From: Actinomycetota bacterium
GTDB taxonomy: Bacteria > Actinomycetota > Thermoleophilia > UBA2241
Length of the DNA stretch: 64,000 nucleotides
NCBI GenBank assembly: GCA_003132585.1
Contig: PKYG01000023.1
Coordinates: 11,841-75,840 of the forward strand
Reading direction: 5' to 3'
Shown here: piece after piece, positions 22,557-58,286 of the stretch
Numbering within the stretch: the first letter of the stretch is position 1
Layout of the letters: each line of letters begins with the position of its first letter
Notes under the pieces: generated by a model
Seen by the model: the letters and a program-made list of their open reading frames with translations, nothing else
The model's database searches: none
What the model was told of the DNA's origin: nothing
Position numbers and translations under genes: made by a program

Positions 22557-22630
22557 TGAGCTGGTCGGCGATCCTCGGGCCGACAACCATAACCTCAGGG
22601 TGGACCGATTTCGGGGGACAGGTCAGTCCG
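22557..22630. repeat. Copy X of the Q module of the multi-copy intergenic element family (see findings)
   Basis: ctggtcggcgatcctcgggccgacaaccataacctcagggtggaccgatttcggggg; related to 35890-35960, 58200-58286 and 53121-53150. Confidence 0.6.
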
Positions 22631-22886
22631 CGTCGATCAACTCGGCGAGCTGATTCACGAGTATCACCGAACAGCAGCGTCAGTCGGGATAAACGCACCC
22701 CTCACCGTGGTTCACGCGTCAAGTGACCTGACGCCATTCGTTCGTCCACCGTCTCTAGGAGCATCAACATACACCCGCAGCCCGCCCCAGACCGGTTAGA
22801 GTTGACACCGCACGGTGTGTCGCCACTCGCGAGCGACTTTTTGGCGTGCCCGTGGCGGCGCACTTCAAGATGACGGGAGACATGCG

Positions 22887-24131
22887 ATGATCACGATCGG
22901 CGCAGCGCTGGACGCCGTGCTTGCCTCGGCTCGCCCCCTGGGTGCAGAGGAGGTGCCGCTTGTCGAGGCCCTGGATCGCGTCGTGAGCGAGACTGTGACG
23001 TCTCCCACCGACCTGCCCCCGTTCACCAACTCGGCGATGGACGGGTACGCGGTGCGCGGCGAAGACCTGACCGGCGACCGGCAGTCGCTGCGTGTGATCG
23101 CCGAGATCCCTGCTGGCTCGGTCTCCGTCGCGCACGTTGGCGCCGGCCAGGCCGCGAAGATCATGACCGGCGCGCCGCTGCCCGCAGGCTCAGACACGGT
23201 GGTCCCTGTGGAACTGACCGAGCCGGCCTCTCACGCAGTCACGGTCGGCAGCAGCGTCGTCATCGGAGGCTCTGTCACCGCCGGCGCCAACGTGCGCCGT
23301 CGCGGAGAGGACTTGTCGAGCGGGGCGACCCTGTTGGCGCCGGGCCGCGTGCTCGGCCCGGCCGATCTGGGTCTGCTGGCAGCCGTCGGTCTGGCGACCG
23401 TGCGCGTCTCGAAGCGGCCTCGCGTCGCAATCCTCGCCACCGGCAGCGAACTGGTCGCCGTCGGGGAGCCACTCGGTCCGGGGCAGATTCGCGACGCCAA
23501 CTCGATCACGGCGTGCGGACAGGTCCTTCGGGCGGGAGGTCAGCCGCGGCTGCTCGGCATCGCACGAGACGATCGCGAGGACACGTGCCGGATGCTCGCG
23601 CAGGCTCTCGAAGCCGACGTCGTGGTCTCCTCCGGCGGTGTGTCGGTGGGGGAGTTCGATCTCGTCAAGGAGATGCTCGAGGAGCTCGGGGTCGACCGCC
23701 GCTTCTGGGGAGTCAAGGTCAAGCCCGGCTGGCCGCTCACCTTCGGCGTCAAAGGGGACACCCTGGTCTATGGGGTGCCGGGCAACCCGGTCGCCGCCAT
23801 GGTGTCCTTCGAGCTCTTCATCCGCCCGGCCATTCTGAAGCTACAGGGCCGCAGCGACGTCTATCGCCCGTGTGTCGACGCTGCCGCCGCAGAGCGCATC
23901 AAGCCGACCAAGCAGCGCGTCGAGCTCCCTCGCTGCCGCCTCATCCGCGGGGCAGGCGGGTGGACGTTTGCGAGGACCGGCCCGCAGGGTTCGGGGGCGC
24001 TCCGGTCGATGACACTCGCAGATGGGCTGGCGCTGGTTCCGGCCGGCTACCCCGGGAGCGAGTCTGGAGCCACGTTCCCGATCATGCTGCTCGACGGCAC
24101 CAGCAACGTGCGTCCACCGTTCCCCGAATGA
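22887..24131 (+). CDS. moeA: Molybdopterin molybdotransferase
   Basis: MITIGAALDAV…LPPFTNSAMDGYAVRGEDL… is MoeA/gephyrin-E-like over its full length. The ATG at 22887 is preferred over the ORF-track start at 22815. Confidence 0.85.
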   Translation: MITIGAALDAVLASARPLGAEEVPLVEALDRVVSETVTSPTDLPPFTNSAMDGYAVRGEDLTGDRQSLRVIAEIPAGSVSVAHVGAGQAAKIMTGAPLPAGSDTVVPVELTEPASHAVTVGSSVVIGGSVTAGANVRRRGEDLSSGATLLAPGRVLGPADLGLLAAVGLATVRVSKRPRVAILATGSELVAVGEPLGPGQIRDANSITACGQVLRAGGQPRLLGIARDDREDTCRMLAQALEADVVVSSGGVSVGEFDLVKEMLEELGVDRRFWGVKVKPGWPLTFGVKGDTLVYGVPGNPVAAMVSFELFIRPAILKLQGRSDVYRPCVDAAAAERIKPTKQRVELPRCRLIRGAGGWTFARTGPQGSGALRSMTLADGLALVPAGYPGSESGATFPIMLLDGTSNVRPPFPE

Positions 24132-24181
24132 GCTGAATGGGATCGGGGGCACGGCGTGCGGCGCTGCCGCGCGACCGGCGC

Positions 24182-25237
24182 TCAGCGCGCCGATGCCGCC
24201 GCGCCGCTCGCCGCCCGCGGCCGCGCCGGGAGCGGGAACGACCCGGGCTCCGCCACCAGCGCCGCCAGTGGGCACGCCTCGGCGCAGAGGCCACAGCCGG
24301 TGCATCTGGCGCCATCGACTTCGAGACTGCCCCCGTCCAGCCTGAGAGCCTCGTGCGGGCAGTAACGCACGCAGAGGCCGCACGCGTTACATTCGGCGCT
24401 CACCGCCACGGTGCCGAGGGGCAGCGACTCGGGAAGTGTCACCGGACCGGCTTCCGTCCCCTTGGCGAGCACGGACAGATCGCCGAGCAGCCAGACTCGC
24501 GTGGCCGGCGGCGGTGCCTGGCGATGCAGCTCGGCAACGGCGCGCTTCTGCGGGGCGATCGCCTCCGCCGCCGTGCGACGGAGGCCACGAGCGACGTAGG
24601 AGAAGAGGCCGCGCCGCGAGACCGACAACGCGTCCGACACTGCCTGCGGCGCGGAGCTGGGCACGCTGCCGCGGGTGATGATGGCATCCGCCCCCAGAAC
24701 TGACAGCGTCTCCGCGACGGTTTCGGTCGTGGCGTCGACCGCTGCGCCGGCCACCGCGTCGGCGCACGTGCCGCACTCGCCACTCAGGAGGCCGATCGTC
24801 ACGATGCCCAACGAGGCCGCCGCGATCAGGTCTGCCGCCGAGATCCCCCCGAGACATGGGACGACGATGACGTCGCGGACCGTGCCGTCATCGTCGTCCG
24901 CGCCCATGCCGACGCCGGCGTGGCGGCAGGCAAAACGGATCGTCCGCATGCACCCTGCCGCCACCTCCTGCAGGCGCTCCCGCAGAGCGGCGCTGCGCGC
25001 GACAAACGAGAGCGCCCCCGTCTTGCACACGGCCGCACAGGCGCCGCACGAGGTACAACGCTGTGGTTCGACCTGGAGCCATGTGGCGGACGTGATCGCC
25101 GCCGTGGGACAGACGTCGAGGCAGAGCCGGCACGAGCTGCCGCGGTATCGTGTGGCCACGCACAGCGGCGGTGCCACATCGGGCAAACGCAGGTCGAAAG
25201 CCCTCAGACCGGCGTCGACGAGGTTCAGACGGTCCAT
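24182..25237 (-). CDS. Multi-cluster [4Fe-4S] ferredoxin-type protein (electron-transfer partner of the Mo enzyme)
   Basis: Four or more CxxCxxCxxxCP motifs (CTSCGACAAVCKTG, CNACGLCVRYCP, CTGCGLCAEACP…). Start at MDRLNLVD (25237), 14 bp from the upstream gene stop. Confidence 0.65.
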   Translation of the reverse strand: MDRLNLVDAGLRAFDLRLPDVAPPLCVATRYRGSSCRLCLDVCPTAAITSATWLQVEPQRCTSCGACAAVCKTGALSFVARSAALRERLQEVAAGCMRTIRFACRHAGVGMGADDDDGTVRDVIVVPCLGGISAADLIAAASLGIVTIGLLSGECGTCADAVAGAAVDATTETVAETLSVLGADAIITRGSVPSSAPQAVSDALSVSRRGLFSYVARGLRRTAAEAIAPQKRAVAELHRQAPPPATRVWLLGDLSVLAKGTEAGPVTLPESLPLGTVAVSAECNACGLCVRYCPHEALRLDGGSLEVDGARCTGCGLCAEACPLAALVAEPGSFPLPARPRAASGAAASAR

Positions 25238-25250
25238 GCCGCGACGACCC

Positions 25251-26033
25251 CTAGCCTGCCGCATCCCCGTCGTCGGCGAGGCTTCCCTCCCCGAGCTCCA
25301 CGGACAGATGCGCGACGAGCAGATCGGACAGCGCCCGATAAAGCCCGCTCGTGGTGGCGGCCCCCACAGCCGCCGCGAACTCGGGCAGCCACAGGCCGGC
25401 GTGTTCGCGCAGGAACGCATCGAGCGCGCGACGCAGGCGCAGCGCCTCGTCGGTCGCCCCCTCGTCCCACGCGTCTTCTTCGCGGCGACACAGGGAGAAG
25501 AGAAACTCGAGCTCGATGGTGACGTGGTCGGGAAGCTCGCCCAGCTCCGCAACGGGAGCGGCGCCCTCGGCCGCGTAGGCGGTGGTGGCGAACGCCGCCG
25601 CCGCCCGATTCAGACGGCTCGGGCGCCGTGGGTCGGCATCGAGGTACTGCGATGCATAGCAGCGCACGGCCGGCGTTCCCGGTCCCGTGAACAGGCGTGC
25701 ATGCTCGACTCGCAGGTCACGCAGTGCAACAGCAGGATCGGCGTCGACCATCGCCGAGCCGGTCTGCGACAGGGCCTGGAACGCGGTCTCGTAGACAGCG
25801 GCATCGTCGCCGAGCCACGCGACTGCTGCGCGCAGACCGTCGTGCAGCTCACCGCTACGGAGTGCCTCGCAGTATGCCGGCGTGGGGTCCCCGAGGCCGA
25901 GGGCAAGAGCCTGATACACGGCGCCCCGGCGTGCGCACACGTCGGCCAGCCGCGCGGCCGGCTCGCCTTCCGGCGCGCCGGCCGCGCGGCCTAACGTCTG
26001 GCCGTGCGTGTCGCTCGGGTCGCCTTTGGTCAC
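25251..26033 (-). CDS. TorD/DmsD-family redox-enzyme maturation chaperone (C-terminal 260 codons of the 490-codon ORF)
   Basis: …YQALALGLGDPTPAYCEALR…LRVEHARLFTGPG…HVTIELEFLFSL… The GTG start at 26033 overlaps the NrfD stop (GTGA). The upstream part of the ORF overlaps nrfD in another frame. Confidence 0.55.
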   Translation of the reverse strand: MTKGDPSDTHGQTLGRAAGAPEGEPAARLADVCARRGAVYQALALGLGDPTPAYCEALRSGELHDGLRAAVAWLGDDAAVYETAFQALSQTGSAMVDADPAVALRDLRVEHARLFTGPGTPAVRCYASQYLDADPRRPSRLNRAAAAFATTAYAAEGAAPVAELGELPDHVTIELEFLFSLCRREEDAWDEGATDEALRLRRALDAFLREHAGLWLPEFAAAVGAATTSGLYRALSDLLVAHLSVELGEGSLADDGDAAG

Positions 26034-27993: not shown

Positions 27994-28045
27994 CGCTCGC
28001 CCCCTTTCTTCAGGCCCGCTCTCTCAGAGACTCCGGTCATCGTCG

Positions 28046-30764: not shown

Positions 30765-31016
30765 CGATCTGCTGCCGTAGGGCGACGGGCTCGGAGGTGG
30801 ACACCGAGCTGACGCCTCCATCGTAGCATCGACCTCCTGCGTGGCAAGGCCGCTTGCAGGCCCATGCGGCGTCGCTGCAGGTTCACTTGACCAAAGTCAA
30901 GTTGGCGCCGCGGCGTGAGGGTGCATGGTCATCGTTGTCAGCTCCCACCTCCGGTGGTAGCGTCGTCACGCCATACAATGGCGGATTCTCCAAGCCCCGG
31001 GTCCTACGGCTCTCAG

Positions 31017-31118
31017 CTACGGACCCCGGGCCGTACCACGGACAGACCGTGGGGCGTCGCTGGTGGCGACGTCGTGGGCCCGGCCGGAAACGACCGGACC
31101 TCCCCGTGCTTGGAAAGG
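31017..31118 (+). promoter_or_regulatory. Copy B of the same leader RNA element, immediately upstream of and including the SD of the molybdate transporter gene; candidate riboswitch
   Basis: CUACGG…CCACGGACAGACCGUGG…GCGUCGCUGGUGGCGACGU…GGCCCGGCCGGAAACGACCGGACCUCCCCGUGCUUGGAAAGGAG followed by the GTG start. TACAAT at 30974-30979. Confidence 0.55.
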
Positions 31119-31130
31119 AGAGTGGTCCGC

Positions 31131-32504
31131 GTGGCGGAGCCTTGGGCTCGCGTCACCCATCGCGACGAGCCACCCGCTCGACGACGGGTCGGCGGCGGCT
31201 CGTTGGCACAGGCGATTCGCTTCAACCGCTTCGAGCTCGCCGGCAGTATCGCCGACGTCGGTCTGATGGTCCCGCTGGCGTGCGGCGTCGCCGTCGCCAG
31301 CGGGGCCAACCTGGCCGTCATCTTCGCCTGCGTGGCGGCCAGCTACGCCGCCGTCGCCCTCGCTTTCCGGGCGCCCGTGCCGGTGCAGCCCATGAAGGTC
31401 ATGGCCGCCACGGTCATCGCCCTGCGACTCTCGCCCACCGTGGTCGGGATCGCAGGCGTTGAGATCGGGCTGGTGTTCCTTGTGCTCGCGCTCACGCCCG
31501 CCATGCGCGTGCTCGCGCGCCTGTTCCCGGCCGCGGTGATTCGCGGCATCCAGCTCGCGATCGGCCTGCTGCTGATAAAGAGCGCCATCCGCATGGCCAA
31601 CACGCCCAAGGCACTGCCGGGGAGCGCCCAGGGCATCCACGTGGGGAGTGTCACCGTATGGGCCGGCGTGGTGCTCGCCGCGGTCATCGGCCTGATCATG
31701 CTGATCCACCGGGGACGCGGACGCGTGCCCCTCGGCCTGCTGGTGCTCGCCGCGGGCGCGATCGTCGGCCTCGTCGCCCTGACGCTGGGCGTGGGCCACG
31801 TGGCTTCGGTCTCGGGAGTCTCCAGGAACGCGATCGTGCACCTACCCTCCGCCGGCGACGCCTGGGTGGCTTTCGTCGTCCTCGTCCTTCCCCAGCTTCC
31901 CCTGTCGCTCGGCAACGCCGTCTACGCCACCGAGGACGCGATGCAGCACTACTACAGCGATCAGGCGGCTCGGGTCACCCCGAGGAACCTCGGGGTGAGC
32001 ATGGGGGTGATCAACCTGGTCTGCGGAGCGCTCTCGGGCATGCCTCTCTGCCACGGCTCCTCCGGTGCGACCGCCGCCTACCGCTTCGGCGGGCGCACAG
32101 CGGGAACGACGCTGCTCGCCGGGGCATTCTACGCGCTGCTGGCGGTGGCCGTGGTCTTCCATGCGTCGCCACTCCTCGTGCCCGGCGCGGTCCTAGCGGG
32201 GCTCCTGCTCTTCGTCGGCATCGAGCACAGCCTGCTGGTGGCCGACCTGCGCTCGCTCGACGCGGTGGCGAGCGCCGCCGTGATCGGCGTCGCGACCCTC
32301 CTCACCGGGAACATGACCATTGGCTTCCTGCTGGGATGGGCGTGCTATGCGGCGCTGCGGCGGACGCCGTTGCGCCGCGTGCCGGTCCGCTGGCCGCGCC
32401 TGACGGCGTGGCTGGCGCCGCGACCGCAGGTCGCGGCGGCAGGACTGGCAGCCAGCGCCACTGCCGTGGCACCGCTCGCGCCGGCGGGCGGCGAGCGTCA
32501 GTAG
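31131..32504 (+). CDS. MOT1-family molybdate transporter (MFS_MOT1 / sulfate-permease-like)
   Basis: PVQPMKVMAATVIAL and SGMPLCHGSSGATAAY match the two MOT1 signature motifs (PxQPMK, CHGxGG). ~10 TM. GTG 31131 (or 31122) with AAGGAG upstream; the ORF-track start at 30915 overlaps the leader element. Confidence 0.6.
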   Translation: MAEPWARVTHRDEPPARRRVGGGSLAQAIRFNRFELAGSIADVGLMVPLACGVAVASGANLAVIFACVAASYAAVALAFRAPVPVQPMKVMAATVIALRLSPTVVGIAGVEIGLVFLVLALTPAMRVLARLFPAAVIRGIQLAIGLLLIKSAIRMANTPKALPGSAQGIHVGSVTVWAGVVLAAVIGLIMLIHRGRGRVPLGLLVLAAGAIVGLVALTLGVGHVASVSGVSRNAIVHLPSAGDAWVAFVVLVLPQLPLSLGNAVYATEDAMQHYYSDQAARVTPRNLGVSMGVINLVCGALSGMPLCHGSSGATAAYRFGGRTAGTTLLAGAFYALLAVAVVFHASPLLVPGAVLAGLLLFVGIEHSLLVADLRSLDAVASAAVIGVATLLTGNMTIGFLLGWACYAALRRTPLRRVPVRWPRLTAWLAPRPQVAAAGLAASATAVAPLAPAGGERQ

Positions 32505-33066: not shown

Positions 33067-33516
33067 TCAGGCTGAAGAAGAGCGCTGCCGAGGCGAACGG
33101 CACCTCGGCCACGCGCACTTCTCGGTAACCGGCAGCCCGACGTCCACGTCGCCGAACGCCTCGACGACCTCCTTGACCGCCGCACGCTCGGTGAACGCCA
33201 TGTCGGCGGCGAGCACGAAGATCGGCTCGCCGAAATGGGCGAGCGCGCTGACGATCCCCGCCAGCGGCGACCCCGGCGTCTCGTCGTAGACGACCTCGAA
33301 GCCCGAGGGAATCAGATCGGGCGATGCGCCGGCACGCAGCGAGACGGCAAGCCTCGGGAACACCTCGCGCAAGATGGTGGCGTTCCGCTCGATCAGCGTC
33401 GTTCCGCCGAGCATCTGCGTACGCTTGTCGAACCCCATTCTCCGCGCCTCGCCGCCGGCGAGCAGGACCCCGGTTGCGACCCGTCGACGTGGCGCTTGTC
33501 CAGTAGGCATCATCTC
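33067..33516 (-). pseudogene. mobA: Molybdenum cofactor guanylyltransferase, disrupted (internal deletion plus frameshift); the C-terminal motif continues in the mobB frame
   Basis: Frame A: MPTGQAPRRRVATGVLLAGGEARRMGFDKR…DVDVGLPVTE then nonsense and a stop at 33067. Frame B from ~33115: …YREVRVAEVPFASAALFFSLNTPADLEEA (MobA C-terminal motif) running into mobB. About 35 residues expected between the two segments are absent. Confidence 0.6.
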
Positions 33517-33540
33517 GGCCCGATCGTACCCCACATCCGG

Positions 33541-33885
33541 TTGACCTGCCCCCATCCATCGGTCCACTTCCGATGATAGTGCGAGAGCCGGTCCCTGTGT
33601 GAGGACGGCAGGTTGGTCCGACTGCTGGACGTTCCCGTGTCGTGCTCTGCCGTCAGAAAGTCCGGATTTGCAGCGGCTTCTGTCGTCTCGCCGACGCCGA
33701 GCCGACGTCGGCGGCGCAGTACCTCACCAACTGCAGCGATTCACAAGGCCATTGAACCTGACTCGAGGCGCCAACGCTGATGAAGCAGGCATCTGGAGAT
33801 TCAAGGTCGGTCGAGATCATCGTCTGAGCCCAGAAGAGGCCGCCGAGGAACTGCTGGGTGCCCTCGGCGGCCTCTCTTTCGGTCG
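33541..33885. repeat. Copy 1 (diverged, full length) of a ~350-nt multi-copy intergenic element (P1 + degenerate M/Q modules)
   Basis: 33575-33715 is ~80% identical to 35650-35790, with compensatory hairpin changes (GGTCC…GGAC versus GACC…GGTC). Entirely intergenic between mobA and the GGDEF gene. Confidence 0.6.
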
Positions 33886-33886
33886 T

Positions 33887-35539
33887 TCAGAACTCGCACA
33901 CCACGACCTGGTTCTTTCCTCTGCGCTTGGCGTCGTACATTGCGGCGTCGGCTGCGGACACTAGTCCCTCGGCATCGACGAAGAGAGGCGGTGATGCCGA
34001 CACTCCCACCGACACGGTGATTCGTTCGGGCATCCCCAGTTCGGCCGACCGTAGCCGAGTAGTTTCCTCTATCTCCTTGCGAATGCGCTCGCCGACACCG
34101 GCTGCTCCATCCGTCGTGGGCCCAGGTCCCGGGCGTGATTCGGCCACCTGCGGCAGCAGGCGGCTCGCCTCATGAACCAACCGGCTGCCACACTCGCGAC
34201 CTCCGTCGATGGGTGTATCCGGCAAGATGATCGCGAACTCCTCGCCTCCGTACCGTGCGGGAATGTCGATGTCGCAACGCAAGTGGGTCTGCAGGAGCTG
34301 CGCAACCGCGCGCAGAGCTTGGTCTCCGGTTTGGTGACCGTGGCGATCGTTGAAACGCTTGAAGTCGTCGATGTCCACCATGAGCAGAGAAAGTGAAGAC
34401 CCGTAGCGTCGTGACCTAGCCACCTCCTCGCGTAGACGTCGGTAGAAGAACCTGTGGTTGTAGAGCCCGGTGAGTCCGTCGGTGATTGCCTCCGACTCGA
34501 GTAACGCATAAAGCTTCGCGTTTTCCATGGCGGCAGCAGTGAGCTCGCCCACGGCGCAAACAAGATCGATCTCAGTCTTGGAGTACCGGCGCTCCACGCA
34601 TGTTTCGGCCAGGACTATCATGCCGAGAGCCTGCCCCTTGAATACGAGGGGGATCTCAAGCCGACTCTTCTCGCCGGGTTGGAGTTTGCACGACCTCATG
34701 CCGGCCACCGGCGCGGGATCAGGCACCTTGTCGGCGGCAATGACGCCCTCTCGCACCACGGCCTGTTCACAGGGATGGTCGGCCAGCGCGATGACACCCG
34801 CAGGACGGCGCACCTTCTTTGCTCCCGATTCATGGGAGGCACGCCGCACCAGCGAGTCCGAGCTTCTGTCATAGGCGTAGACGGTGCAGCGCGAGGCGCC
34901 GAGAGCCGACGCTGCCTTTGCCGTCATCACGCCCAAGGTGCCGACGATATCCACCGGCGACGTCAGAGCCCGGCCTGCGTCGGCTAGTGTGCCCAAGTGC
35001 CGGTTCTGCTCCTCCAGCCGCCGGAACGCGTGCGCGTTGTTGATGGCGATCGCCGCCTGCACGGCGAGCTGCCCGAAGAGTGTGCGCTCGGCCGGCGTGA
35101 AGCGCCTCAGCGCGCGCGTCTCCACGAGGCCGAGCACGCCGATGACGCGATCGCCGTAGACGAGCGGCGTGTCGATCGTGGTCTGGAAGCCCCACTTGTC
35201 GAAGGACGCGCGGTCTATGGGCGGCAGGTCGGGGTCGTCGCTGTGCAGCTCGACGGTCCGCCGGCCCTCGACGACGGCGAGCATATTGTCCCAGTCGTCG
35301 AGCTCGGCGGTGTCCCCCACGGCGTCGCCGTACGGGTTCTTCTCGGCGGCGCACCAGGTGGCCACGAAGGTCATGTGCCGCGCGCCCGGCTCGTACTCCC
35401 AGATGTCGCATGAGAAGACGCCCATAGCCTCACCGATCTGGCGAGCGACCGTGGCCAGGATATCTTCTGCGGCGAGGCTCGATGCCAGCGTGGCGCTGAC
35501 TTCGGCGAGGATGCTCTGTGGAGGTCTCCGCGTGACCAT
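33887..35539 (-). CDS. GAF-GAF-GGDEF diguanylate cyclase
   Basis: Two GAF domains followed by GLTGLYNHRFF…LLMVDIDDFKRFNDRHGHQTGDQAL…RYGGEEFAIILP (GGEEF active site). Confidence 0.85.
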   Translation of the reverse strand: MVTRRPPQSILAEVSATLASSLAAEDILATVARQIGEAMGVFSCDIWEYEPGARHMTFVATWCAAEKNPYGDAVGDTAELDDWDNMLAVVEGRRTVELHSDDPDLPPIDRASFDKWGFQTTIDTPLVYGDRVIGVLGLVETRALRRFTPAERTLFGQLAVQAAIAINNAHAFRRLEEQNRHLGTLADAGRALTSPVDIVGTLGVMTAKAASALGASRCTVYAYDRSSDSLVRRASHESGAKKVRRPAGVIALADHPCEQAVVREGVIAADKVPDPAPVAGMRSCKLQPGEKSRLEIPLVFKGQALGMIVLAETCVERRYSKTEIDLVCAVGELTAAAMENAKLYALLESEAITDGLTGLYNHRFFYRRLREEVARSRRYGSSLSLLMVDIDDFKRFNDRHGHQTGDQALRAVAQLLQTHLRCDIDIPARYGGEEFAIILPDTPIDGGRECGSRLVHEASRLLPQVAESRPGPGPTTDGAAGVGERIRKEIEETTRLRSAELGMPERITVSVGVSASPPLFVDAEGLVSAADAAMYDAKRRGKNQVVVCEF

Positions 35540-35610
35540 GGGGTCACACTACCACCTGATGCACCGCGACCGTGCCGTGTGCTAAGGCGCGCTTGACCGC
35601 ATCACGTGGT

Positions 35611-35980
35611 GATCTGACCCCATTCGTTGGTCCGATTCTCATGCTAGTGCGAGCGTCGGTCGCCGTGTGAGGACGGCAGGTTGGACCGTTTGCTGGAGGT
35701 CTTGGGGGAACCTCTCGCCTCTGAAGTGCTGGAGGTCTTGTTCTTGTGTCTGGCCGTCAGAAAGCCAAGACTTGCAGCGACTGCTGTCGTCTCGCCGACG
35801 CGAAGCCGACGTGTGCTGCTGTGAAGACCCCCAGCAGCCAACGTGAGGGCGCCGACACATGCCGACGCCACCAGGGGCCGTACAGCGCTACAGAGCGTAC
35901 GTGAGCTGGTCGGCGATCTTCGATCCGAAAACCATAACCTCAACCTGGATCGATTTCAGGGGTGCGGGTCAACGGTACCC
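35611..35980. repeat. Copy Y (most complete: P1 + M + Q) of the multi-copy intergenic element, between the GGDEF gene and the integrase
   Basis: Shares P1 with 33575-33715 and M+Q with 58111-58286; Q also matches 22557-22630. Contains an internal 13-nt tandem duplication (gctggaggtcttg x2). Confidence 0.6.
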
Positions 35981-36004
35981 CTCCCAGTGATGAGGAGGTC
36001 GACC

Positions 36005-37246
36005 ATGCGCGGCCACATCCGCAAGCGCGGCAAACAAGGCTACGAGTACATCATCGACATCGGTCCCCACCCCGCCCAGCGCTGCCAGAGTTGCAGCAAG
36101 CGCTTCTGGGTGGAGCGGCGACCGAAACGCAGCTGTCCCCGATGCGGCGGTGAGCTCTCCGAGGTCGAGGAGCGTCGGCGCGAGACCAAGGCCGGCTTTC
36201 GCACGCTGACCGAGGCGCAGCAGGCGATGAGCAAGGCGCTCACGGCGGTCGCAGAGCAGCGCCACGTGATCGCCACGCCCGTCAGCGTAGCTGAGTTTCT
36301 CATCGACGTCTGGCTGCCGGCGATCATGCCCACCGTCAGGCCGACGACTCATGCCGGCTATCGCAGCGCCTGTTTGCGCCACGTCTGCCCCCGCCTCGGG
36401 CAGGTGAAGCTGCAGCGCTTAGACGGCGCGATGCTCAACTCACTCTATGCGCATCTCTCAAAAGCAGGCGGCATCCGCCGCGAAGGCGGCCTGGCGCCGC
36501 GCAGCGTGGCCCTCGTGCACCGCACCCTGCACCGCGCCCTCGCGGACGCCGTGCGCTGGGGCTATCTTCCCTACAGCACAGCCGATAGAGCCGACCCGCC
36601 GCGGCAGACGGGCCTCGAGCGTGAGCTGCCCGTCTGGTCTGAGGAGCAGTTGCACAGCTTTCTCGATAGTGTGCGCGAGGAGCGCCTCTACCCGCTGTGG
36701 CGCTTTCTCTCGATGACCGGCTGCCGGCGCGGTGAGGCCTTAGGGCTGCAATGGCGTGATCTCGACATGGAGAGTTCCCGCGTTGCCATCCGCCGAGCAC
36801 TGATCCCGATCGATGGCAAGCTGCTTGTCTCGGAGCCGAAGACAAAACGTGGGCGCCGGCTGATCGCCCTCGATCAAGAGACCTTGGCGGTCTTGCGCGA
36901 ACAAGCCGCCTGCCAGCTCTCCGAGGAGCGCCTCTGGGGTGAGGGCTGGGTGTCCTCGGGCTACGTCTTTACCAAGGAGAGCGGCGAGCCGCTGCACCCC
37001 GAGCGGATCAGCGCCCTCTTTGGTCGCCTGGTGCGCCGGGCGTGTTTGCCCAAGATCCCCCTGCATGGCCTCAGACACACCTATGCCAGCCTCGCGCTCG
37101 CCAAGGGCGTCAATCCGCTGATCGTCTCCCGCCGGCTGGGGCACTCGACGGTGGCCTTTACCTTGGACGTCTACTCACACGTCCTGCCACAGGTCGATGC
37201 CGAGGCGGCGGAGCTGATCGCCGGCATCTCCCCACGCCTCAGCTGA
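36005..37246 (+). CDS. Tyrosine-type site-specific recombinase/integrase (phage-integrase family)
   Basis: C-terminal LHGLRHTYASLALAKGVNPLIVSRRLGHSTVAFTLDVYSHV (R-H-R-Y catalytic region). ATG 36005 with a GAGGAGG Shine-Dalgarno; the ORF-track start at 35843 lies within the repeat element. Confidence 0.85.
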   Translation: MRGHIRKRGKQGYEYIIDIGPHPAQRCQSCSKRFWVERRPKRSCPRCGGELSEVEERRRETKAGFRTLTEAQQAMSKALTAVAEQRHVIATPVSVAEFLIDVWLPAIMPTVRPTTHAGYRSACLRHVCPRLGQVKLQRLDGAMLNSLYAHLSKAGGIRREGGLAPRSVALVHRTLHRALADAVRWGYLPYSTADRADPPRQTGLERELPVWSEEQLHSFLDSVREERLYPLWRFLSMTGCRRGEALGLQWRDLDMESSRVAIRRALIPIDGKLLVSEPKTKRGRRLIALDQETLAVLREQAACQLSEERLWGEGWVSSGYVFTKESGEPLHPERISALFGRLVRRACLPKIPLHGLRHTYASLALAKGVNPLIVSRRLGHSTVAFTLDVYSHVLPQVDAEAAELIAGISPRLS

Positions 37247-37729
37247 CTCCGGCTTCCCACACGCAAGTCACGCTCGATCAAGATCGACTCCTCGTGCCCG
37301 CGTTGCGCGCTCGACGCTTGTGTCAGTGCGCTCAGAAACCTGCGTCATTTGCAGGGGGAAATCAGCTCGATGTCGGCGGAATGGTGACCGCTCACGCCTG
37401 AGCGCGGCGCGGAGGCGCCATTCGTCGCGCCATCCGGTCCGGGAGTTATGCGCGATTTGCAGGCGAAACGGTGGTGGCGGGGGACAGAATTGAACTGTCG
37501 ACACCATGATTTTCAGCCGTCACAGACCGTGCCTGCGGTGCCCGTCTAGCCTCCACACAGCCCCATACAGTGCCACTATTTCCACTGTTTCACATGGGCA
37601 TGTTGGCAAGAATGTTGGCAAGGAAGGAGTAGAACCAGGCAGCCGGTAGCAGCCGTAGACAGGACATTGAAACCGCAGAGGGGCCCGCTCGAGCGATCGG
37701 CGGGCTCCTCTGCATTTGTCACCTTTGAC

Positions 37730-38110
37730 ACCGCTTCGTCGCCCTCTCCGGTTGACCGCCAACGACGTGCTCTGGGTGCTGGCCGATCTCTTCTTGGAGT
37801 ACGGCATCCCCGAGCACATCCGCTCCGACAACGGGCCCGAGTTCGTCGCCAAGGCGGTGCGGGGTTGGCTCTCGCCGAGCTGGGGGTCACCACCCTGTTC
37901 ATCGAGCCCGGCTCGCCTTGGGAGAACCGCTACGTCGAGTCGTTCAACGGCAAGCTCAGAGATGAGCTTCTCAACGGCGAGATCTTCTACACGCTCAAGG
38001 AAGCTCAGATCCTGGTCGCCAACTGGCGGCGGCTCTACAACGGCCTGCGCCCGCACAGCTCGCTGGGACAACGCCCGCCGGCGCCCGAGACGATCGTCTG
38101 GCCGGGCTTC
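37730..38110 (+). pseudogene. IS3-family transposase remnant (rve integrase-core C-terminus, N-truncated and frameshifted)
   Basis: HIRSDNGPEFVAKAV in one frame, then IEPGSPWENRYVESFNGKLRDELLNGEIFYTLKEAQILVANWRRLYNGLRPHSSLG in another frame. No N-terminal HTH or DDE N-part. Confidence 0.55.
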
Positions 38111-38419
38111 TCGCTTGCAGACTTCGGCCCCCCGTCGCCTACACGGGAGGTAGCCCTGGGACTGATATGGAGCAGCATCTGTCAAGCGGCCGACGTCGAA
38201 CCGCCCGCACTCGCTGAGGCGGGGTTGGAGTGGATTACCGGAGGACGCCGCGGTGAGCGCGCCGGGCTGCGATAGCGACGCGCGGTCAGTCTGATATGCG
38301 CGGGTTTGGCTATCCGCATGACCGTCTCTGCGTCGGGAGCGGCGCTGCTCTAACGGCGAGCGTGGCCCTCTCAGAGGGCTGCTCATAGTCCCATCGCGCA
38401 TGCTCCTCGCGCTGGCGGC

Positions 38420-39700
38420 CCAGCGCACTCGCCGCGGCGTCCTTGAGGTCGCAGCCTTCAGGCGTCCATCGTCGCCAGACTCCAGCACCAGCCGGCCAGA
38501 TCGCGGGCCACGGCCACGGCGGCCACCGTGGAGCGCTTGCCGCGGGCATCGAAGGCAGCCCAGCGTCGCTGCAGGCGCCGCCCCGCGGTCTCGGCGCGCA
38601 CGCGCACCACGGCCGGCTGCCCCTCGCGGCGGCCCGCCAGCTCGCGGCTCGCACGCGAGGCCGGCCGCCGCTGCTGCCAGGCGGCCTCGACCAGCAGGCG
38701 CCGGGCGTGGCCGTTGCCGGTCTTGGTGATCGCTCCCTGGCGGCGGCGCTCACCGGAGGAGGACTCGCTGGGGGTGAGCCCCAGGTAGGCGCCGATCGAG
38801 CGCCCGTCGAAGCGCTGCCAGTCGCCGATCTCGGCGGCCAGCCCGAAGGCGGTCAGGGTGGAGACGCCACGCAGACACGAAAGGCGACCGACCGTCGCCG
38901 CCCAGGGCTGCTTGGCGGCTTCCTCGCAGATCGCCACATCGAGGGCGTCGCGGCGCGCCCGCACGCTCTCGACGGCGGCCACGGCCTCCCCGTAGGCGAG
39001 GGCCAGGCCGCGCATCTCGAAGCGCTGGCTGGCGAGCCAGCGCTCATGCGCCTGCATCCAGGCGCTGCCCTCCCAGACGAGGCCCTGGCGCAGGAGCAGC
39101 TTGGAGAGTCGGTGGCGGGCGCGCATGAGGTCGGAGCGCGCGTCCTCGCGGGCGCGCACGAGGTCACGGGCGGCTTCCTCCTCCAGGCTCGGCACGCGCA
39201 CCGCGACGAGCTCGTCGAGGCGCAGCAGCTTCGCCAGCCGGAGGGCGTCGCGGCGGTCGGTCTTGACGCGCTCGCCGGGGGCGCGGGCGATGCGCGAGGG
39301 GGCGGCCACCAGGCAGGGGATCCGCGCCGCCTCGCAGGCGCGCGCCAGGCCGAAGCCGGTGGGCCCCGCCTCGTAGGCGACGGAGACGGACTCGCCCTGG
39401 GCGCGCAGCCAGGGCAGAAGCTCGGCGGTGCGCGCCGGGGCGCTGCAGATCCTCACCTCGCCGGTACCTGCGTTGAGCATCGCGGCCGCGACCGACCGTG
39501 CGTGCACATCGAGACCGATGAACGTAAGCTCACTCATGCGGCGCCTCCCCGTAAATGCGGCTCTGCCACCACCCGGTGTGGCGGCAACCCGCGCCAACTT
39601 ACGTGGCGGGGCGCCGCGCCGCCACATACGGTCTAACATAAGAAGTGGACCAATGAATGGGGTCTGGTCAGTACGAGCTACAAACAGCCTTGGACGCCAA
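38420..39700 (-). mobile_element. IS110-family insertion sequence (boundaries approximate)
   Basis: Single transposase gene, no obvious terminal inverted repeats (typical of IS110). Sits between the IS3 remnant and the VWA gene. Confidence 0.5.
38458..39537 (-). CDS. IS110-family transposase (DEDD)
   Basis: MSELTFIGLDVHARSVAAAML…YEAGPTGFGLAR… N-terminal DEDD domain; C-terminal …GLTPSESSSGERRRQGAITKTGNGHARRLLVEAAW… Start at ATG 39537. Confidence 0.85.
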   Translation of the reverse strand: MSELTFIGLDVHARSVAAAMLNAGTGEVRICSAPARTAELLPWLRAQGESVSVAYEAGPTGFGLARACEAARIPCLVAAPSRIARAPGERVKTDRRDALRLAKLLRLDELVAVRVPSLEEEAARDLVRAREDARSDLMRARHRLSKLLLRQGLVWEGSAWMQAHERWLASQRFEMRGLALAYGEAVAAVESVRARRDALDVAICEEAAKQPWAATVGRLSCLRGVSTLTAFGLAAEIGDWQRFDGRSIGAYLGLTPSESSSGERRRQGAITKTGNGHARRLLVEAAWQQRRPASRASRELAGRREGQPAVVRVRAETAGRRLQRRWAAFDARGKRSTVAAVAVARDLAGWCWSLATMDA

Positions 39701-39717
39701 GGAGAAACCGGAACCGG

Positions 39718-53028: not shown

Positions 53029-53439
53029 TTGGTGTCCCCGCCTATGAGGAGACGGGCAGGCAAGTAGTCCGGTGGAGCACCACGAATGCCCCACCGCCGG
53101 CCGTGACAATTGCATTGAGCGAGGCGATCCTCGGGCCTCAGCGGACCCCACGGGGAGACCAGCAAAACGGTCTAGTGCTCAGTCCAGACCGGGAACACGC
53201 CGATGAAGGCCTCGGCCCAGCGTCGCACTCCGGTCGGCGAAACCGCGCCCACCGAGGCATGACTCCGCGGCATCCAAGTCGTTGACCCGGCTTCAACCAT
53301 TCTGAGAACGGTCCGCCATTACGGTTACACGCACTTGTCTCGCAAGTGGCGTGCACCTATCATGAGGCAAGGAACCGCCCATGCGCGACAGACAACACCG
53401 GACGGCTGGGCAACCAAACGATGCATGTAGGAGATGAGT

Positions 53440-54790: not shown

Positions 54791-55399
54791 ATGATCACGC
54801 CCCGCATTCTTGCCGAGCTGGCGGCCATCGTGGGGGATGCGAACATCGTCTGCGCCGAGACGCTGCTGCACGCTTACGAGTACGACGCGTACATGCTTGA
54901 GAGTGCCCGTCCCGATGCCGTTGTCTTCGTTTGCTCGGTAGAGGAGGTTGCCTCTGTTGCCAAGGTGGCTCAGAGAGCAAGCATTCCCCTGATCCCCAGG
55001 GGTTCTGGCACAAACCTGAGCGGCGGGACCTTGGCCGTGCGGGGCGGCATCGTGATCGAACTGGCGCGCATGAATCGCGTCCTCGAGATCGATGTGCCCA
55101 ATCGCACGGTGCTGGTGGAAGCAGGTGTTTTCAATGCAGATGTCTCCGTCGCGATCAACGATCTCGGCTTCTACTACGCGCCCGACCCAGCAAGCGGCAA
55201 GGCCTGCACGATTGGTGGCAACATCGCTGAGGGAGCCGGTGGCCCCCATTCCTTCAAGTACGGCGTGACCGCCAACCGCGTCCTCGGCGCCGAAGTCGTG
55301 CTTCCAGACGGAGAAGTGGTATGGCTGGGCGGCAAGGGTTGCGACGCTCTAGGCTACGACGTGCTCGGGCTGTTCATCGGCAGTGAGGGCACCCTGGGT
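54791..55399 (+). pseudogene. FAD-linked oxidase (GlcD / D-lactate dehydrogenase-like) N-terminal fragment; truncated right after the GSEGTLG motif
   Basis: FAD_binding_4 domain (…VVFVCSVEEVASVAKVAQRASIPLIPRGSGTNLSGG…LFIGSEGTLG) then non-protein-like sequence. The ORF continues only as an antisense artefact across the lipoprotein gene. Confidence 0.55.
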
Positions 55400-55516
55400 G
55401 ATCGGACGGCCGTCGACGGCGCAGTTGGTGAAGTGCACCGGTTCGAAGTCGGCGAAGCCAATACCGTGCGACATTTGTGCCTCGACGATGATCTCGGCCG
55501 AGTCGCACTTGGCAGC

Positions 55517-56431
55517 TCAGCTGGTCTTGACGATCGAGAAGCTCTCGCCTTGAGTCCCATCGACCAGCGTGAGCTTGAAGCGGTGGCCTCCGAGGCTTGT
55601 GACGGTAGCAGTGACCGTGTCCCCGGCGTTGACCACCATGTCCTGCGGGCCATCGAGCGTGCTGGCCGTGTGGATCGTGACCGGCGGCTTAGGGAACATC
55701 TCGTACCAAGCCACGTAGCTTTCCCCCAGGATGCAACGGATGCCAGTCTGTTCGACCGTGTTGCTTCCCGGGACCTTGCCGTCGAGACCCACCCAGATAG
55801 AGACGCGCCGCGCGGTAGTCCCGTTCACGTGGAGCTGCGGTACCGTCCACGTTGCGGTGACTCTCGTGAACCGCCGACCGATAGCACAGTAGCCGGCCCA
55901 GTTGAACTGAAAGACGTAGGCGGAGTAGGCCTTGTCGGCACTCTGCACGCGCTGCACCGCCCTGTTGTAAGCCGGGAGGTCCTTGTTCCAGGCCGCCGCG
56001 TTGTAGGCGAGTGCGTCCTTGTGCAGACGATCCTCGTAGCTCACCTCATACCTCACGCGAGAGGCGTACTTGCTAGCGAGCCTCCACTGCTTGGAGCCGT
56101 CGTTCTTCGGCTGAATGGCGCGAGCCCTCCGAAGGTCGTCAAGGGCTGCCCTGTGCCGCGTCGTGTACGCGCCGAAGTTGTGAGAGTAGTCGGCTAAAGA
56201 TTCATTGTAGGCGTGCTGGCGGGCGCGACTAATCATGGTGACGTACTTCGAAATCGCGGGCGATACGGTCACGCTGGGATCAACGATCTTCCTTATTGTG
56301 GGCGGCGGGGGCAGGGGCGGCGGCGGGGCAGGCAGCTTGCTGCCACATCCGGTGGCAACAGTTGCGCACAGCACTAGGAGCAGGCAAACAGGAACGATGG
56401 CAATACGTGTACTGGTCCCCCAGCCTTTCAT
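55517..56431 (-). CDS. Secreted lipoprotein with C-terminal peptidase G1 (eqolisin)-like / concanavalin-like beta-sandwich domain
   Basis: Lipobox LLVLCATVATGC; Pro-rich linker; C-terminal WTVPQL…SIWVGLDG… resembles the G1 peptidase WVGIDG motif (tentative). Confidence 0.5.
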   Translation of the reverse strand: MKGWGTSTRIAIVPVCLLLVLCATVATGCGSKLPAPPPPLPPPPTIRKIVDPSVTVSPAISKYVTMISRARQHAYNESLADYSHNFGAYTTRHRAALDDLRRARAIQPKNDGSKQWRLASKYASRVRYEVSYEDRLHKDALAYNAAAWNKDLPAYNRAVQRVQSADKAYSAYVFQFNWAGYCAIGRRFTRVTATWTVPQLHVNGTTARRVSIWVGLDGKVPGSNTVEQTGIRCILGESYVAWYEMFPKPPVTIHTASTLDGPQDMVVNAGDTVTATVTSLGGHRFKLTLVDGTQGESFSIVKTS

Positions 56432-56683
56432 GGTCCCCCGGTAGACGAGGAGAGTCTACAGCCGGCTTGGGGCCGAAACTAAGGAGAATGTCACGCCCGG
56501 GCGACTGTCTTTGTGTGACCGGCGCGCTCCGGCAGCGTAGCCGGCCCCCAGAGTTGACCGGCCACCGTCTCGGGGACTTCGCTCACACGCACAGAACGTC
56601 CGGTCGCTGGCGACCGTATGCGAGCCCTGGTCAGCCGGCGAGGGTGACGAAGGCGCGGCGCGGGTGACAATGCCGATGCCGCT

Positions 56684-57931
56684 CTAGGTGGGTGGCTTGC
56701 AGACGCTGCAGGGCCGGTAACCCTCTGCCTTGGCCTTGCTCAGGCGGATGGCGATCTTGCTCTTGGAGAGGTAGCGACAGCCAGCGCGGTGGTAGCACTC
56801 ACCGGTGGCGGTGATGTAGACGATCGGATCGCCGCTGCTCGAGCTGGTCGTGCCGCCGCCAGACGAACCGCTTCCGGCCGAGACCGGCTTCGAGGAGCGT
56901 GTGAAAGACCACGTGACCGCACCCGAGGCCGCGAATCGCACCGTGATCGTGCCGTCTCTCTGCGTCGTGTAGGTGCGCACCCCGTGGGCGTGCAGGCGGG
57001 CGAGGGTGGCCGGTGACGGGTGACCGTAGGGGTTCGGACCGACGGAGATGACGGCGTACTGCGGCCGTGTCTGAGAGAGGAAGCTGTCGCCGGTCGAGTA
57101 GGCGGAGCCGTGGTGGGCGACCTTGAGCAGGTAGAGCGGCGGGCCGCGGGCGCAGATTGAGCCGACGGCGGCCTCGTTGGGGCCCGTGCAGTCGCCGGTG
57201 AGCAGCACCTCTTTGCCGTCGATCTTGAGCAGAAGGACGATGCTGTCGGCGTTCAGGTCTGGCGCCATGTAGGTGTCCGGGCTGAGCCCCTGGGCGACGA
57301 GCGCGCCGAAGTGCAGCCGCTGCCCGCGATAGGCGTGGCTGACCTTCGCACCGACGGAGTGCAGCGCAGACATCAGACGTGCATAGCAGGCGGTGGTTGC
57401 CGTGGCATCACTGTAGGCAAGGCGCGGCCGGTAGCGTTGCACGATGCTCACGAGGTCGCCGATGTGGTCTTCGTGGGGATGGGTGACCACGAGCGTGTCG
57501 AGGCGTGAGATGCCGAGGGAGGAGAGTTCGCCGGCGATCGCCGCGTCGTTGCCGGCGCTGCCGCCGTCGATCAGACCCGCCCAGGAGCCGGCCTTGATGA
57601 CGATGCCGTCGCCCTGACCGACGTCGACGAACGCGAGCGTGACACTGCCGCCACCCGTGGCTTTGGTCGGCGCCGCCGTCTTTGCCGGCTTCGGCTTGGC
57701 AGAGGGCTTTGTCGCCGGCTTCGCGCTGCGCGCGGGCGTTGCCTTGGCACGGGGCCCTGCGGCGCTCGGAGTGACAGCATTGCTCCCACAGCTCGCCAGG
57801 AGCGCGGACAGCAGAAAGGCGACGAGCAGAGCGCGCAGACAGCGCCAGAGAATAGGCAGCGGTTTGGCTACGCGCTGCTCGCAGCGTGCAAGTCCTTGAG
57901 AAGAGCGCGACACTTTCCCGAAAACTCCCAA
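56684..57931 (-). CDS. Secreted MBL-fold metallo-hydrolase (ComEC/Rec2-related lactamase_B domain) with a C-terminal Cys/His motif
   Basis: Lipoprotein-type signal (LLSALLASCGS). …FVDVGQGDGIVIK…LVVTHPHEDHIGDL…, C-terminal CYHRAGCRY…CSVCKP. Confidence 0.7.
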   Translation of the reverse strand: MGVFGKVSRSSQGLARCEQRVAKPLPILWRCLRALLVAFLLSALLASCGSNAVTPSAAGPRAKATPARSAKPATKPSAKPKPAKTAAPTKATGGGSVTLAFVDVGQGDGIVIKAGSWAGLIDGGSAGNDAAIAGELSSLGISRLDTLVVTHPHEDHIGDLVSIVQRYRPRLAYSDATATTACYARLMSALHSVGAKVSHAYRGQRLHFGALVAQGLSPDTYMAPDLNADSIVLLLKIDGKEVLLTGDCTGPNEAAVGSICARGPPLYLLKVAHHGSAYSTGDSFLSQTRPQYAVISVGPNPYGHPSPATLARLHAHGVRTYTTQRDGTITVRFAASGAVTWSFTRSSKPVSAGSGSSGGGTTSSSSGDPIVYITATGECYHRAGCRYLSKSKIAIRLSKAKAEGYRPCSVCKPPT

Positions 57932-58110
57932 AGCTCCCCCGTGGCGAGATCCGGTGCCTCGCCTTGGACACCACCCACATTGTCACCCTATCAGGATTGT
58001 GGAACGGATCTCGGAGCGGGTGGAGTGTGCACAGGTCTATGAATCGTGTGCTGGTGCGAATCCGAGCCTAGGAACGGCCTCTGCCACGCAGATGCCACCC
58101 ACCGTGCTCC

Positions 58111-58286
58111 CGACCAGAAACCGGCGCGACACCTGAGGGTGACGCACGCTGGCCTCGAACATCGGCCGCCAAGCGCCGACGCCACGAGAGGCCGTACAGC
58201 GCGTCAGAGCGTGGTGCGTCAGCTGTCCGGCGATCCTCGGGCTGAGAACGACCACCTCAAGGTGGACCGATCTCCTGGGCTCGGCC
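58111..58286. repeat. Copy Z (M + Q modules, 5'-diverged) of the multi-copy intergenic element
   Basis: …gccgacgccacgagaggccgtacagcgcgtcagagcgt…ctgtccggcgatcctcgggctgagaacgaccacctcaaggtggaccgatctcctggg; ~75% identical to 35850-35960. Confidence 0.6.

Follow-up and report, generated by a model that had tools for sequence, protein, structure and literature searches.

Diverged intergenic repeats of an actinomycetotal contig as probable miniature and one-ended remnants of an IS3-family insertion sequence

Results

Alignment, motif, and profile searches of a 64-kb stretch of DNA (the window, by which we mean the whole stretch analyzed) showed that its dispersed intergenic repeats share their ends with an IS3-family insertion sequence (IS), and the repeats are very probably MITE-like derivatives of such an element that have lost autonomy, together with relics that retain a single end. 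The approximately 26-nt motif at their ends is the inverted repeat (IR) of an IS3-family insertion sequence; one copy, Y, is MITE-like and apparently carries an internal deletion, whereas three others, A, X, and Z, are one-ended fragments, each truncated on one side. A first-pass annotation had divided the repeats into modules P1, M, and Q and had proposed three explanations: an undescribed cis-regulatory or small-RNA family, a MITE-like mobile repeat, and an integrase target. The second of these was essentially right, and the parent can now be named as an IS3-family element. The copies considered in the window are as follows.

22557..22625, minus strand: copy A, left-end fragment comprising the left repeat (IRL, 22625-22600) and the leader, the "Q core" of the first-pass annotation
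22724..22749, minus strand: solo right-end inverted repeat matching the IR pattern with 2 mismatches, newly found
33542..33715, minus strand: copy X, right-end fragment in which P1 consists of the right repeat (IRR) and about 150 nt, with the inner side truncated at 33715
35610..35975, minus strand: copy Y, 366-nt complete miniature element with no transposase
53123..53137, no strand assigned: 15-nt exact match to Q, not counted as a family member
58152..58287, minus strand: copy Z, left-end fragment with a degenerate IRL (58287-58262) followed by Q and M, truncated before P1

Copies of the repeat

Four of the five repeat sites originally listed are real; the fifth, at 53121-53150, had been taken for a Q fragment and amounts to the exact 15-mer at 53123-53137, a chance-level match (BLAST E about 0.4) with dissimilar flanks. 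The Q core recurs at 22557-22617, 35902-35962, and 58219-58279 (80 to 85% identity), P1 is common to 33542-33715 and 35610-35819 (75 to 80% identity with an indel), and M is common to 35851-35898 and 58165-58212 (83% identity), while the pairing of Y and Z through M and Q is borne out by an alignment over 120 nt at 74%. Identities of 74 to 85% agree with the old age that had been ascribed to the copies, and every copy is intergenic, as had been stated, by open reading frames and Pfam. A "13-nt tandem duplication" in Y proved to consist of two directly repeated 14-nt units, at 35691-35704 and at 35727-35740, spaced 36 nt apart.

Aligned on the minus strand, Y runs in the order IRL (35975-35950), Q, M, P1, and IRR (35635-35610); its ORF gave no Pfam match, and tblastn with OrfA and OrfB found nothing in it. 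Exact IR matches were found in X (33542-33567) and, on the minus strand, in A (22600-22625), which is 85% identical to Y, 81% to Z, and 84% to the IRL regions of two metagenome loci (L066 and L082). The IR of Z was recovered by the motif search with 3 mismatches and is supported by alignment. Over 26 nt, the solo repeat at 22724-22749 matches the IRR of the metagenomic element L105 at 92% identity; the motif tally gives its orientation as (+).

Terminal motif and parent element

The start of P1 and the end of Q are the same approximately 26-nt motif, TGAYCNGNCCCC….RTYGGTCCAC, aligned in inverted orientation relative to each other, a relationship overlooked in the first reading. A pattern search of the window found this motif, common to all copies, in both orientations, with six matches at no more than 3 mismatches in 64 kb, where chance would give 0.11; two of them, at 22724-22749 and 39645-39670, had not been listed before. 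In Y (35610-35975) the motif stands at both ends as terminal inverted repeats. In addition to the six termini of the 64-kb window, the sister-strain contigs L004 and L131 hold four further copies.

IS3-family elements carry orfA and orfB with a programmed frameshift, encode a DDE ("rve") transposase, and have ends of the form 5′-TG…CA-3′. Complete copies of the repeat have the ends TGACC… and …GGTCA, which are imperfect repeats of this form, and the relatives, the window pseudogene described below, and a plasmid homolog point to a parent with orfA and orfB and a DDE (rve) transposase. A metagenome scan with the end motif returned at least 120 contigs; in 47 of these the motif lies directly beside a homologous rve transposase gene, on its 3′ side, and five metagenome elements of 1,210 to 1,266 bp contain orfA, orfB, and both repeats. 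A 363-position nhmmer profile built from the window copies and related miniature copies matches the autonomous elements solely at positions 2 to 57 and in the last 50 to 60 nt, and the ends of Y match those of autonomous IS3 elements in the same kind of search. Because the motif adjoins IS3 transposase genes and the profile matches only the extreme IS ends, Q (with M) is assigned to the left end and P1 to the right end. In L128 and L067 a Q-type left end is followed by a Shine-Dalgarno sequence and the start of orfA, and the P1 homolog in L093 gave a tblastn match to the C-terminal part of the window OrfB pseudogene product (fragment residues 87 to 136).

The miniature form also occurs elsewhere. 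An unrelated metagenome contig, L062, holds a full-length 377-nt homolog (6353-6729; 77% identity to Y over 226 nt) and one partial copy, and Q-type ends were found in Thermoleophilia and Actinomycetota MAGs and in one Cand. Cryosericum assembly. On an Afipia plasmid, a protein annotated by PGAP as "IS3 family transposase" is 70% identical to the OrfB of L105, the closest intact relative of the window pseudogene, and the terminal repeats are similar. A plasmid BLAST search with Y in distant mode gave no match, a viral contig scan with the repeat motif gave none, and neither did a GTDB genome scan with the miniature-internal pattern CTGNCGNNTCGCCGACNCNNAGCCGACGT, in a set that does not include the window's own genome. 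A tagD protein look-up for strain comparison returned no record.

An IS3 pseudogene interrupted by an IS110-family element

The motif at 39645-39670 belongs to a remnant that retains part of a transposase gene. The features concerned are as follows.

37752..38175, plus strand: 3′ part of an IS3-family orfB (rve/rve_3), a 5′-truncated and frameshifted pseudogene
38176..39632, minus strand: IS110-family element (transposase 38458-39537), outside the repeat family
39633..39670, plus strand: IRR and last bases of the same IS3 copy, with an exact IR match on the minus strand at 39645-39670

The orfB pseudogene matches Pfam rve_3 (4e-26), and NCBIfam favors IS3 (1e-29) over IS481 (2e-22). It shares 77 to 80% protein identity with residues 213 to 349 of L105 OrfB (tblastn) and 75% nucleotide identity with L105 over 376 nt, while 39633-39670 is 92.5% identical to L105 positions 1202 to 1241. 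It is separated from its IRR because an IS110-family element was inserted in the right end; once that element is taken out, the pseudogene lies directly upstream of the 39.6-kb motif, and the sequence joined in silico matches positions 268 to 363 of the miniature-element profile (E 1.5e-13). The IS110-family transposase was identified by Pfam DEDD_Tnp_IS110 and Transposase_20 and by NCBIfam NF033542 (3e-61), under the name RNA-guided transposase. Its element lies about 38 nt inside the IS3 right end, with the dinucleotide CT on both flanks (GGGA-CT-GATATGG … ACGGT-CT-AACATAAG), in this one instance. Neither the pseudogene nor the IS110 element beside the 39.6-kb copy had been noticed in the first reading. 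Membership of the IS481 family was rejected, since the relatives have both orfA and orfB and the NCBIfam score is higher for IS3. No intact cognate IS was found within the 64-kb window.

Discussion

Anatomy and mobility

Our results suggest how the modules may have arisen. The parent was probably an element of approximately 1.2 to 1.27 kb with orfA, orfB, and imperfect terminal inverted repeats of approximately 26 to 30 nt (TGACC.G.CCCC….ATCGGTCCAC). Module Q represents the left repeat and the untranslated leader, the start of M still resembles the first codons of orfA (a short likeness, judged by eye), and P1 consists of the right repeat and the degenerate last approximately 150 nt of orfB; Y retains both ends and appears to have lost the transposase genes. 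Origin by simple internal deletion is only partly shown, because most of the middle approximately 200 nt (the rest of M and the inner part of P1) had no significant similarity to orfA or orfB by tblastn or profile search. At 366 nt, Y lies below the size limit of approximately 500 bp for a MITE and has no transposase gene, and its terminal repeats match the ends of autonomous ISs.

Judging from the IS3 family, movement would require cognate OrfAB supplied in trans and binding both terminal repeats, and transposition would probably follow a copy-out/paste-in route via a circular intermediate. With identities of just 74 to 85% and no cognate transposase gene in the window other than a pseudogene, the copies are most likely immobile fossils. 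A check for target-site duplications, suggested in the first-pass annotation, found none at Y (flanks CGT and CCA), and none was found at the L062 copy L062a (CAC and GGT). This comparison discriminates weakly because five autonomous relatives likewise have none in these assemblies, where metagenome assembly may have scrambled the flanks. As no clean empty site was found among the strain contigs compared, we infer past mobility of the copies rather than demonstrate it.

Possible outward transcription and the regulatory RNA proposal

Among present-day effects of the copies, transcription may pass out through the right end of an element and enter a gene beginning 29 to 125 nt downstream. A possible, if unlikely, further reading is co-option, in which the miniature element would serve as a portable promoter or leader that reads outward and drives mobA, the GGDEF gene, and others. 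In four independent right-end copies, the IRR lies 29 to 125 nt upstream of a co-directional start codon: X faces mobA (its tip about 29 nt upstream of the likely start, ATG 33513), Y faces the GGDEF gene, L062a faces an ADH gene, and the L004 copy faces a TIR-domain gene. This spacing leaves little room for a separate promoter; transcription would begin within the element or pass through it. A scan of 33450-36050 for a promoter consensus found no sites.

The same arrangement might be taken to mean that the modules are a structured cis-regulatory leader or small RNA controlling the minus-strand genes tagD, mobA, the GGDEF gene, and the MBL gene, a proposal that we consider very improbable. All four main window copies do lie upstream of, and co-directional with, a minus-strand gene, so that the upstream position described in the first-pass annotation is real for these; it does not extend to L131a, L131b, and the 39.6-kb IS3 remnant, which face no co-directional start, and the genes downstream are unrelated in function. 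A short left-end hairpin (ATCGGTCC…GGACCGAT) is conserved, with 79% of cells pairing against 9 to 48% when the partner is slid, but its covariation is indistinguishable from that of shuffles, and the autonomous ISs carry the same hairpin. For the P1 helices, one of which had been described as compensatory, no both-side changes and no compensatory pairs were found at homologous columns in six P1 copies, and pairing, at 59% of cells, does not exceed that of shuffles (182 of 500). Rfam 15 gave no match at gathering or E-value thresholds, sensitive mode included; folding z-scores of -1.4 and -2.3 were unremarkable, and the predicted pairs to a large extent join terminal repeat to terminal repeat. 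The conserved parts are transposon ends, homologous to those of ISs, with transposase-coding remnants among them.

Integrase, island, and chance

We give hardly any credence to a reading in which Y and Z serve as attL and attR of an island at 36 to 58 kb, integrated by the adjacent tyrosine integrase with this repeat as its target. The two copies are direct repeats on either side of this region, and the integrase start (36005) is 30 nt from Y. They are, however, IS-derived units with 74% identity and a longest common exact word of 13 nt; Y is intact, with terminal repeats at both ends and no split site, and Z has a repeat at its one preserved end. Copies A and X fall beyond the limits of the island as proposed. 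The integrase gene is followed, about 230 nt downstream, by a tRNA 3′-end fragment (37472-37499) that makes a more conventional att remnant, and the sister-strain contigs retain Z with its flanking genes and Y with the integrase, yet differ elsewhere. A tRNA or tmRNA target was considered and rejected: ARAGORN found none in the window, and the tRNA 3′ fragment near the integrase is unrepeated. Similarity by chance or through low-complexity GC-rich sequence, which fits site 53123-53137 alone (its E of about 0.4), has a negligible probability overall; at the other four sites it is refuted by BLAST E values of 1e-11 to 1e-20, by the motif tally (6 against 0.11), and by homologs in independent assemblies.

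Strain rearrangements and significance

At present the copies probably provide dispersed homology for recombination, for strain-specific breakpoints lie within or close to them: the sister-strain contigs diverge from the window inside the P1 of X (33649) and at 56556, and they carry extra copies near breakpoints, although the L004 and L131 differences could be assembly chimeras at repeats. The copies are ordinary selfish DNA that marks gene-order differences between related strains; they fall together with rearrangement breakpoints at the strain level, and an IS110-family element has inserted into one parent copy. All of these features are typical of mobile-element biology and would not surprise a specialist. 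The main value of the analysis is a correction, in that a seeming RNA family is transposon debris, which averts a false RNA annotation and keeps an island boundary from being misplaced. The analysis also describes a previously uncatalogued IS3-derived miniature element, present in MAGs of uncultured Actinomycetota and Thermoleophilia type and in a Cand. Cryosericum assembly.

Comparison with known systems

Some IS110-family elements use repeats, or the ends of other mobile elements, as insertion sites: IS4321/IS5075 enter Tn21-family terminal repeats, and IS621 enters REP sequences. Like these, the IS110 element here sits in the end of another element; it is a single case, so target specificity is putative, and the IS/MITE family might conceivably offer its right end as a programmed landing site to the neighboring IS110-family recombinase.

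The IS3-family ISs, on the Afipia carboxidovorans plasmid pHCG3B (NC_017536) and in the metagenomic loci L067, L078, L120, L121, and L114, have the same terminal motif (TGAyC.G.CCCC…GGTCC) and share the left-end leader hairpin with the window copies, and their right end overlaps the orfB stop codon. They encode a transposase, whereas A, X, Y, and Z do not; they measure about 1.25 kb against the 366 nt of Y; and, in contrast to them, the sole coding remnant here is truncated and frameshifted and has another IS inserted in it.

Comparable bacterial repeats include the Correia, RUP, and ERIC-type elements. Unlike bacterial MITEs, the elements described here showed no target-site duplications and most window copies are one-ended; mobility is read here from sequence, and Y is longer than many MITEs and keeps recognizable bits of the parent coding ends. 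MITEPsy1 is a MITE derived from ISPsy2, and MITEs depend on a transposase in trans, with specificity residing in the terminal repeats (PMC3189936). The elements of the window resemble MITEPsy1 and other bacterial MITEs in their small size, their lack of a transposase, and their parent-IS terminal inverted repeats, as well as in their multiple diverged intergenic copies and their occurrence in more than one lineage.

Repeat copies and their shared ends

Our results make it very likely that the dispersed repeats are an IS3-derived, MITE-like family accompanied by relics of IS ends. Copy anatomy, homology to IS3 ends, the lack of a transposase gene, and dispersal in several lineages were established here, and among the hypotheses of the first-pass annotation it was the MITE-like mobile repeat that proved right. 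The copies, all on the minus strand, are designated A (22557-22625), X (33542-33715), Y (35610-35975), and Z (58152-58287). The modules P1, M, and Q that had been described as shared were recovered by a mechanical search for repeats and by self-BLAST of the window: the Q core lies at 22557-22617, 35902-35962, and 58219-58279 (80-85% identity), P1 is common to 33542-33715 and 35610-35819 (75-80%), and M is common to 35851-35898 and 58165-58212 (83%), while Y and Z are 74% identical across a 120-nt alignment. With identities of 74-85%, the copies are old. A proposed fifth site, 53121-53150, was not counted: it has only an exact 15-mer in common with Q, its flanks are dissimilar, and E is ~0.4. 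At 53119-53137, the 9-nt loop of the Q hairpin (GTCGGC-GATCCTCGG-GCCGAC) recurs on a different stem in a perfect small hairpin (GAGGC-GATCCTCGG-GCCTC), a likeness statistically indistinguishable from chance. The duplication reported within Y exists, not as a 13-nt tandem but as a 14-nt direct repeat (35691 and 35727, 36 nt apart). Elsewhere, at 3601-4533, a 321-bp unit occurs in three tandem copies of 76-77% identity, probably a repeated protein domain within a gene.

ORF lists and Pfam bore out both the intergenic location of all copies and the flanking genes named earlier, the pairs being cytidylyltransferase/MoeA, MobA/MobB and GAF-GGDEF, GGDEF/tyrosine integrase, and MBL/HsdR. Overlooked until now was that, in alignment, the start of P1 and the end of Q are one ~26-nt sequence in opposite orientations. 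A scan of both strands with the terminal pattern TGAYCNGNCCCCNNNNRTYGGTCCAC (≤3 mismatches) gave 6 matches in the window versus 0.11 expected from shuffles:

22600-22625, minus strand, terminal-pattern match
22724-22749, plus strand, terminal-pattern match, new site
33542-33567, plus strand, terminal-pattern match
35610-35635, plus strand, terminal-pattern match
39645-39670, minus strand, terminal-pattern match, new site
58262-58287, minus strand, terminal-pattern match

With this start of P1 at one end and this end of Q at the other, Y (366 nt) has terminal inverted repeats.

An interrupted IS3 copy in the window

The terminal-repeat copy at 39.6 kb adjoins an IS110-family element, on the far side of which lies a transposase pseudogene:

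37752-38175, plus strand, rve/rve_3 transposase pseudogene, C-terminal ~137 residues spread over two frames
38176-39632, minus strand, IS110-family element, inserted into the IS3 copy ~38 nt in from its right end
38458-39537, minus strand, IS110-family transposase (Pfam DEDD_Tnp_IS110 and Transposase_20; NCBIfam NF033542, 3e-61)

NCBIfam scored the pseudogene better as IS3 (1e-29) than as IS481 (2e-22), and when the IS110 element was deleted in silico, the pseudogene and the repeat at 39633-39670 joined as one contiguous IS3 right end. The junctions read GGGA-CT-GATATGG … ACGGT-CT-AACATAAG, with a CT dinucleotide at both, and intact relatives have GGGACTAACATA at the insertion position; the equivalent position is present in X and Y. 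NCBIfam names the IS110-family element "RNA-guided transposase," and the ~280-nt noncoding stretch after its transposase gene, which has CTGATATG (about 38290), identical to the sequence at the 38175 junction, may encode a putative guide RNA.

Modules as ends of an autonomous IS

A motif scan found the terminal motif in at least 120 metagenome contigs. Among the matches listed, it often lay 60-120 nt from the end of a contig, where repeats, which break assemblies, would be expected to fall; it stood just 3' of a homolog of the window's transposase fragment in at least 47 loci (the best homolog, in L105, being 78% identical over 136 residues); and complete elements of 1210-1266 bp occurred at at least 5 loci. 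Each complete element has orfA (MPKKRYRPEEII…YYRWRKEYGG…), a frameshifted orfB, and both repeats (TGACCTGCCCCCC…GGTCC/GGACC…GGGGGCAGGTCA).

An nhmmer profile of 363 positions, built from ten miniature copies, matched these autonomous elements at their termini only: profile positions 3-56 correspond to IS positions 2-57, and positions 302-363 to its final 50-60 nt. The IS3 remnant in the window was likewise matched, by positions 268-363 (E 1.5e-13). In contigs L128 and L067, a Shine-Dalgarno sequence and then the orfA start come after Q-type left ends, and the P1 copy of L093 has a tblastn match to residues 87-136, the C-terminal part, of the OrfB fragment in the window. Together, these observations identify Q(+M) as the left end and P1 as the right end. 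Of the P1 forms, the long one (L004, L093, L027, and L062a, a 377-nt element) is the older. The beginning of M (…GTAGCGCTGTACGGCCCC) looks similar, as judged by eye only, to AAGCGCTACCGCCCC, which codes for KRYRP; most of the middle ~200 nt of the miniature element matches neither orfA nor orfB significantly. Y retains both ends and by sequence appears to have lost its interior by deletion; A, X, and Z are one-ended fragments.

Just inside the left terminal repeat lies a 7- to 8-bp inverted repeat, ATCGGTCC…GGACCGAT (e.g., 35955-35922, minus strand, and L067:3265-3305), conserved in miniature and autonomous copies alike; this hairpin belongs to the IS, not to host genes. It pairs in 79% of cells versus 9-48% in slid controls and shows a matched G-C to A-T change in Y, with covariation not above shuffles. 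It could serve to bind the transposase or to keep transcription from reading through. From established IS3-family biology, mobilization would require OrfAB in trans, and transposition would proceed copy-out/paste-in via a circle joining both repeats. No target-site duplications were seen at miniature or autonomous copies, and no empty site was found.

Alternative readings

The copies had also been read as an undescribed family of regulatory RNAs, leaders or sRNAs, on the strength of a long-range P1 helix enclosing a compensatory hairpin. This reading is not supported. Rfam, including sensitive scans, had no relevant match at any of the four sites; its only hits in the window were two divergent Moco riboswitches (RF01055; 30657-30796, minus strand, and 30976-31136, plus strand; 48 and 58 bits) with a molybdopterin oxidoreductase operon on one side and a MOT1-type transporter gene on the other. 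Folding of Y gave z = -1.4 (plus strand) and -2.3 (minus strand), with much of the predicted pairing joining the two terminal repeats. Across six P1 copies, the proposed helices paired in 59% of cells, 182 of 500 shuffles did equally well or better, and no pair was changed on both sides; the "compensated" stem of Y takes a partner shifted by 3 nt. MAFFT places the long forms 1 nt off at the 5' strand, and after correction by eye GACGG/CCGTC is invariant, hence uninformative. Genes start 29-125 nt downstream of right ends, which might promote their transcription; a sigma-70 consensus scan for a promoter, covering 33450-36050, returned 0 sites. The right-end tip of X and the likely mobA start (MMPTGQ…GVLLAGGEARRMG, ATG 33513) are only ~29 nt apart (region 33510-33567); the public contig's automatic call starts later, at 33438, losing the N terminus of the NTP_transf_3 domain.

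That Y and Z are integrase targets bounding a 36- to 58-kb island is likewise not supported, given that their longest common exact word is 13 nt, Y is intact with terminal repeats at both ends, A and X fall outside the island, and a tRNA 3' fragment near the integrase is a more conventional att remnant:

36005-37246, tyrosine integrase gene
37472-37505 (also given as 37472-37499), minus strand, tRNA 3' fragment (T arm GACAG-TTCAATT-CTGTC, acceptor strand, CCA)

The fragment, ~230 nt beyond the integrase stop, is unique in the window, which has no complete tRNA, and was probably left as an att remnant by an integrative element that is now decayed.

Spread of the family

In an unrelated metagenome, contig L062 carries the 377-nt element with both repeats, 77% identical to Y across 226 nt, and, on the far side of an ADH gene, a partial second copy. 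Sister-strain contigs (sample ERZ27254147) hold four further copies:

L004 5935-6158, sister-strain copy
L004 6917-7003, sister-strain copy
L131 9523-9790, sister-strain copy
L131 ~10000-10052, sister-strain copy

These contigs are 99.6-99.9% identical to the window up to divergence points inside the P1 of X (33649) and at 56556, just past the MBL gene; in the stretches compared (L004:5935-6160 and L131:8760-10100), the new flanks are a CAP12/TIR-domain gene and further miniature copies. The divergence fits strain-level rearrangement by recombination at dispersed repeats, or assembly chimeras. The GTDB representative genomes with Q-type ends are two Thermoleophilia MAGs, one Actinomycetota MAG, and one "Candidatus Cryosericum" assembly; a pattern from the interior of the miniature element had 0 matches there, so the window's own genome lies outside that set. 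A protein 70% identical to the L105 OrfB on the Afipia carboxidovorans plasmid NC_017536 is annotated as "IS3 family transposase," and the ends of its element are similar.
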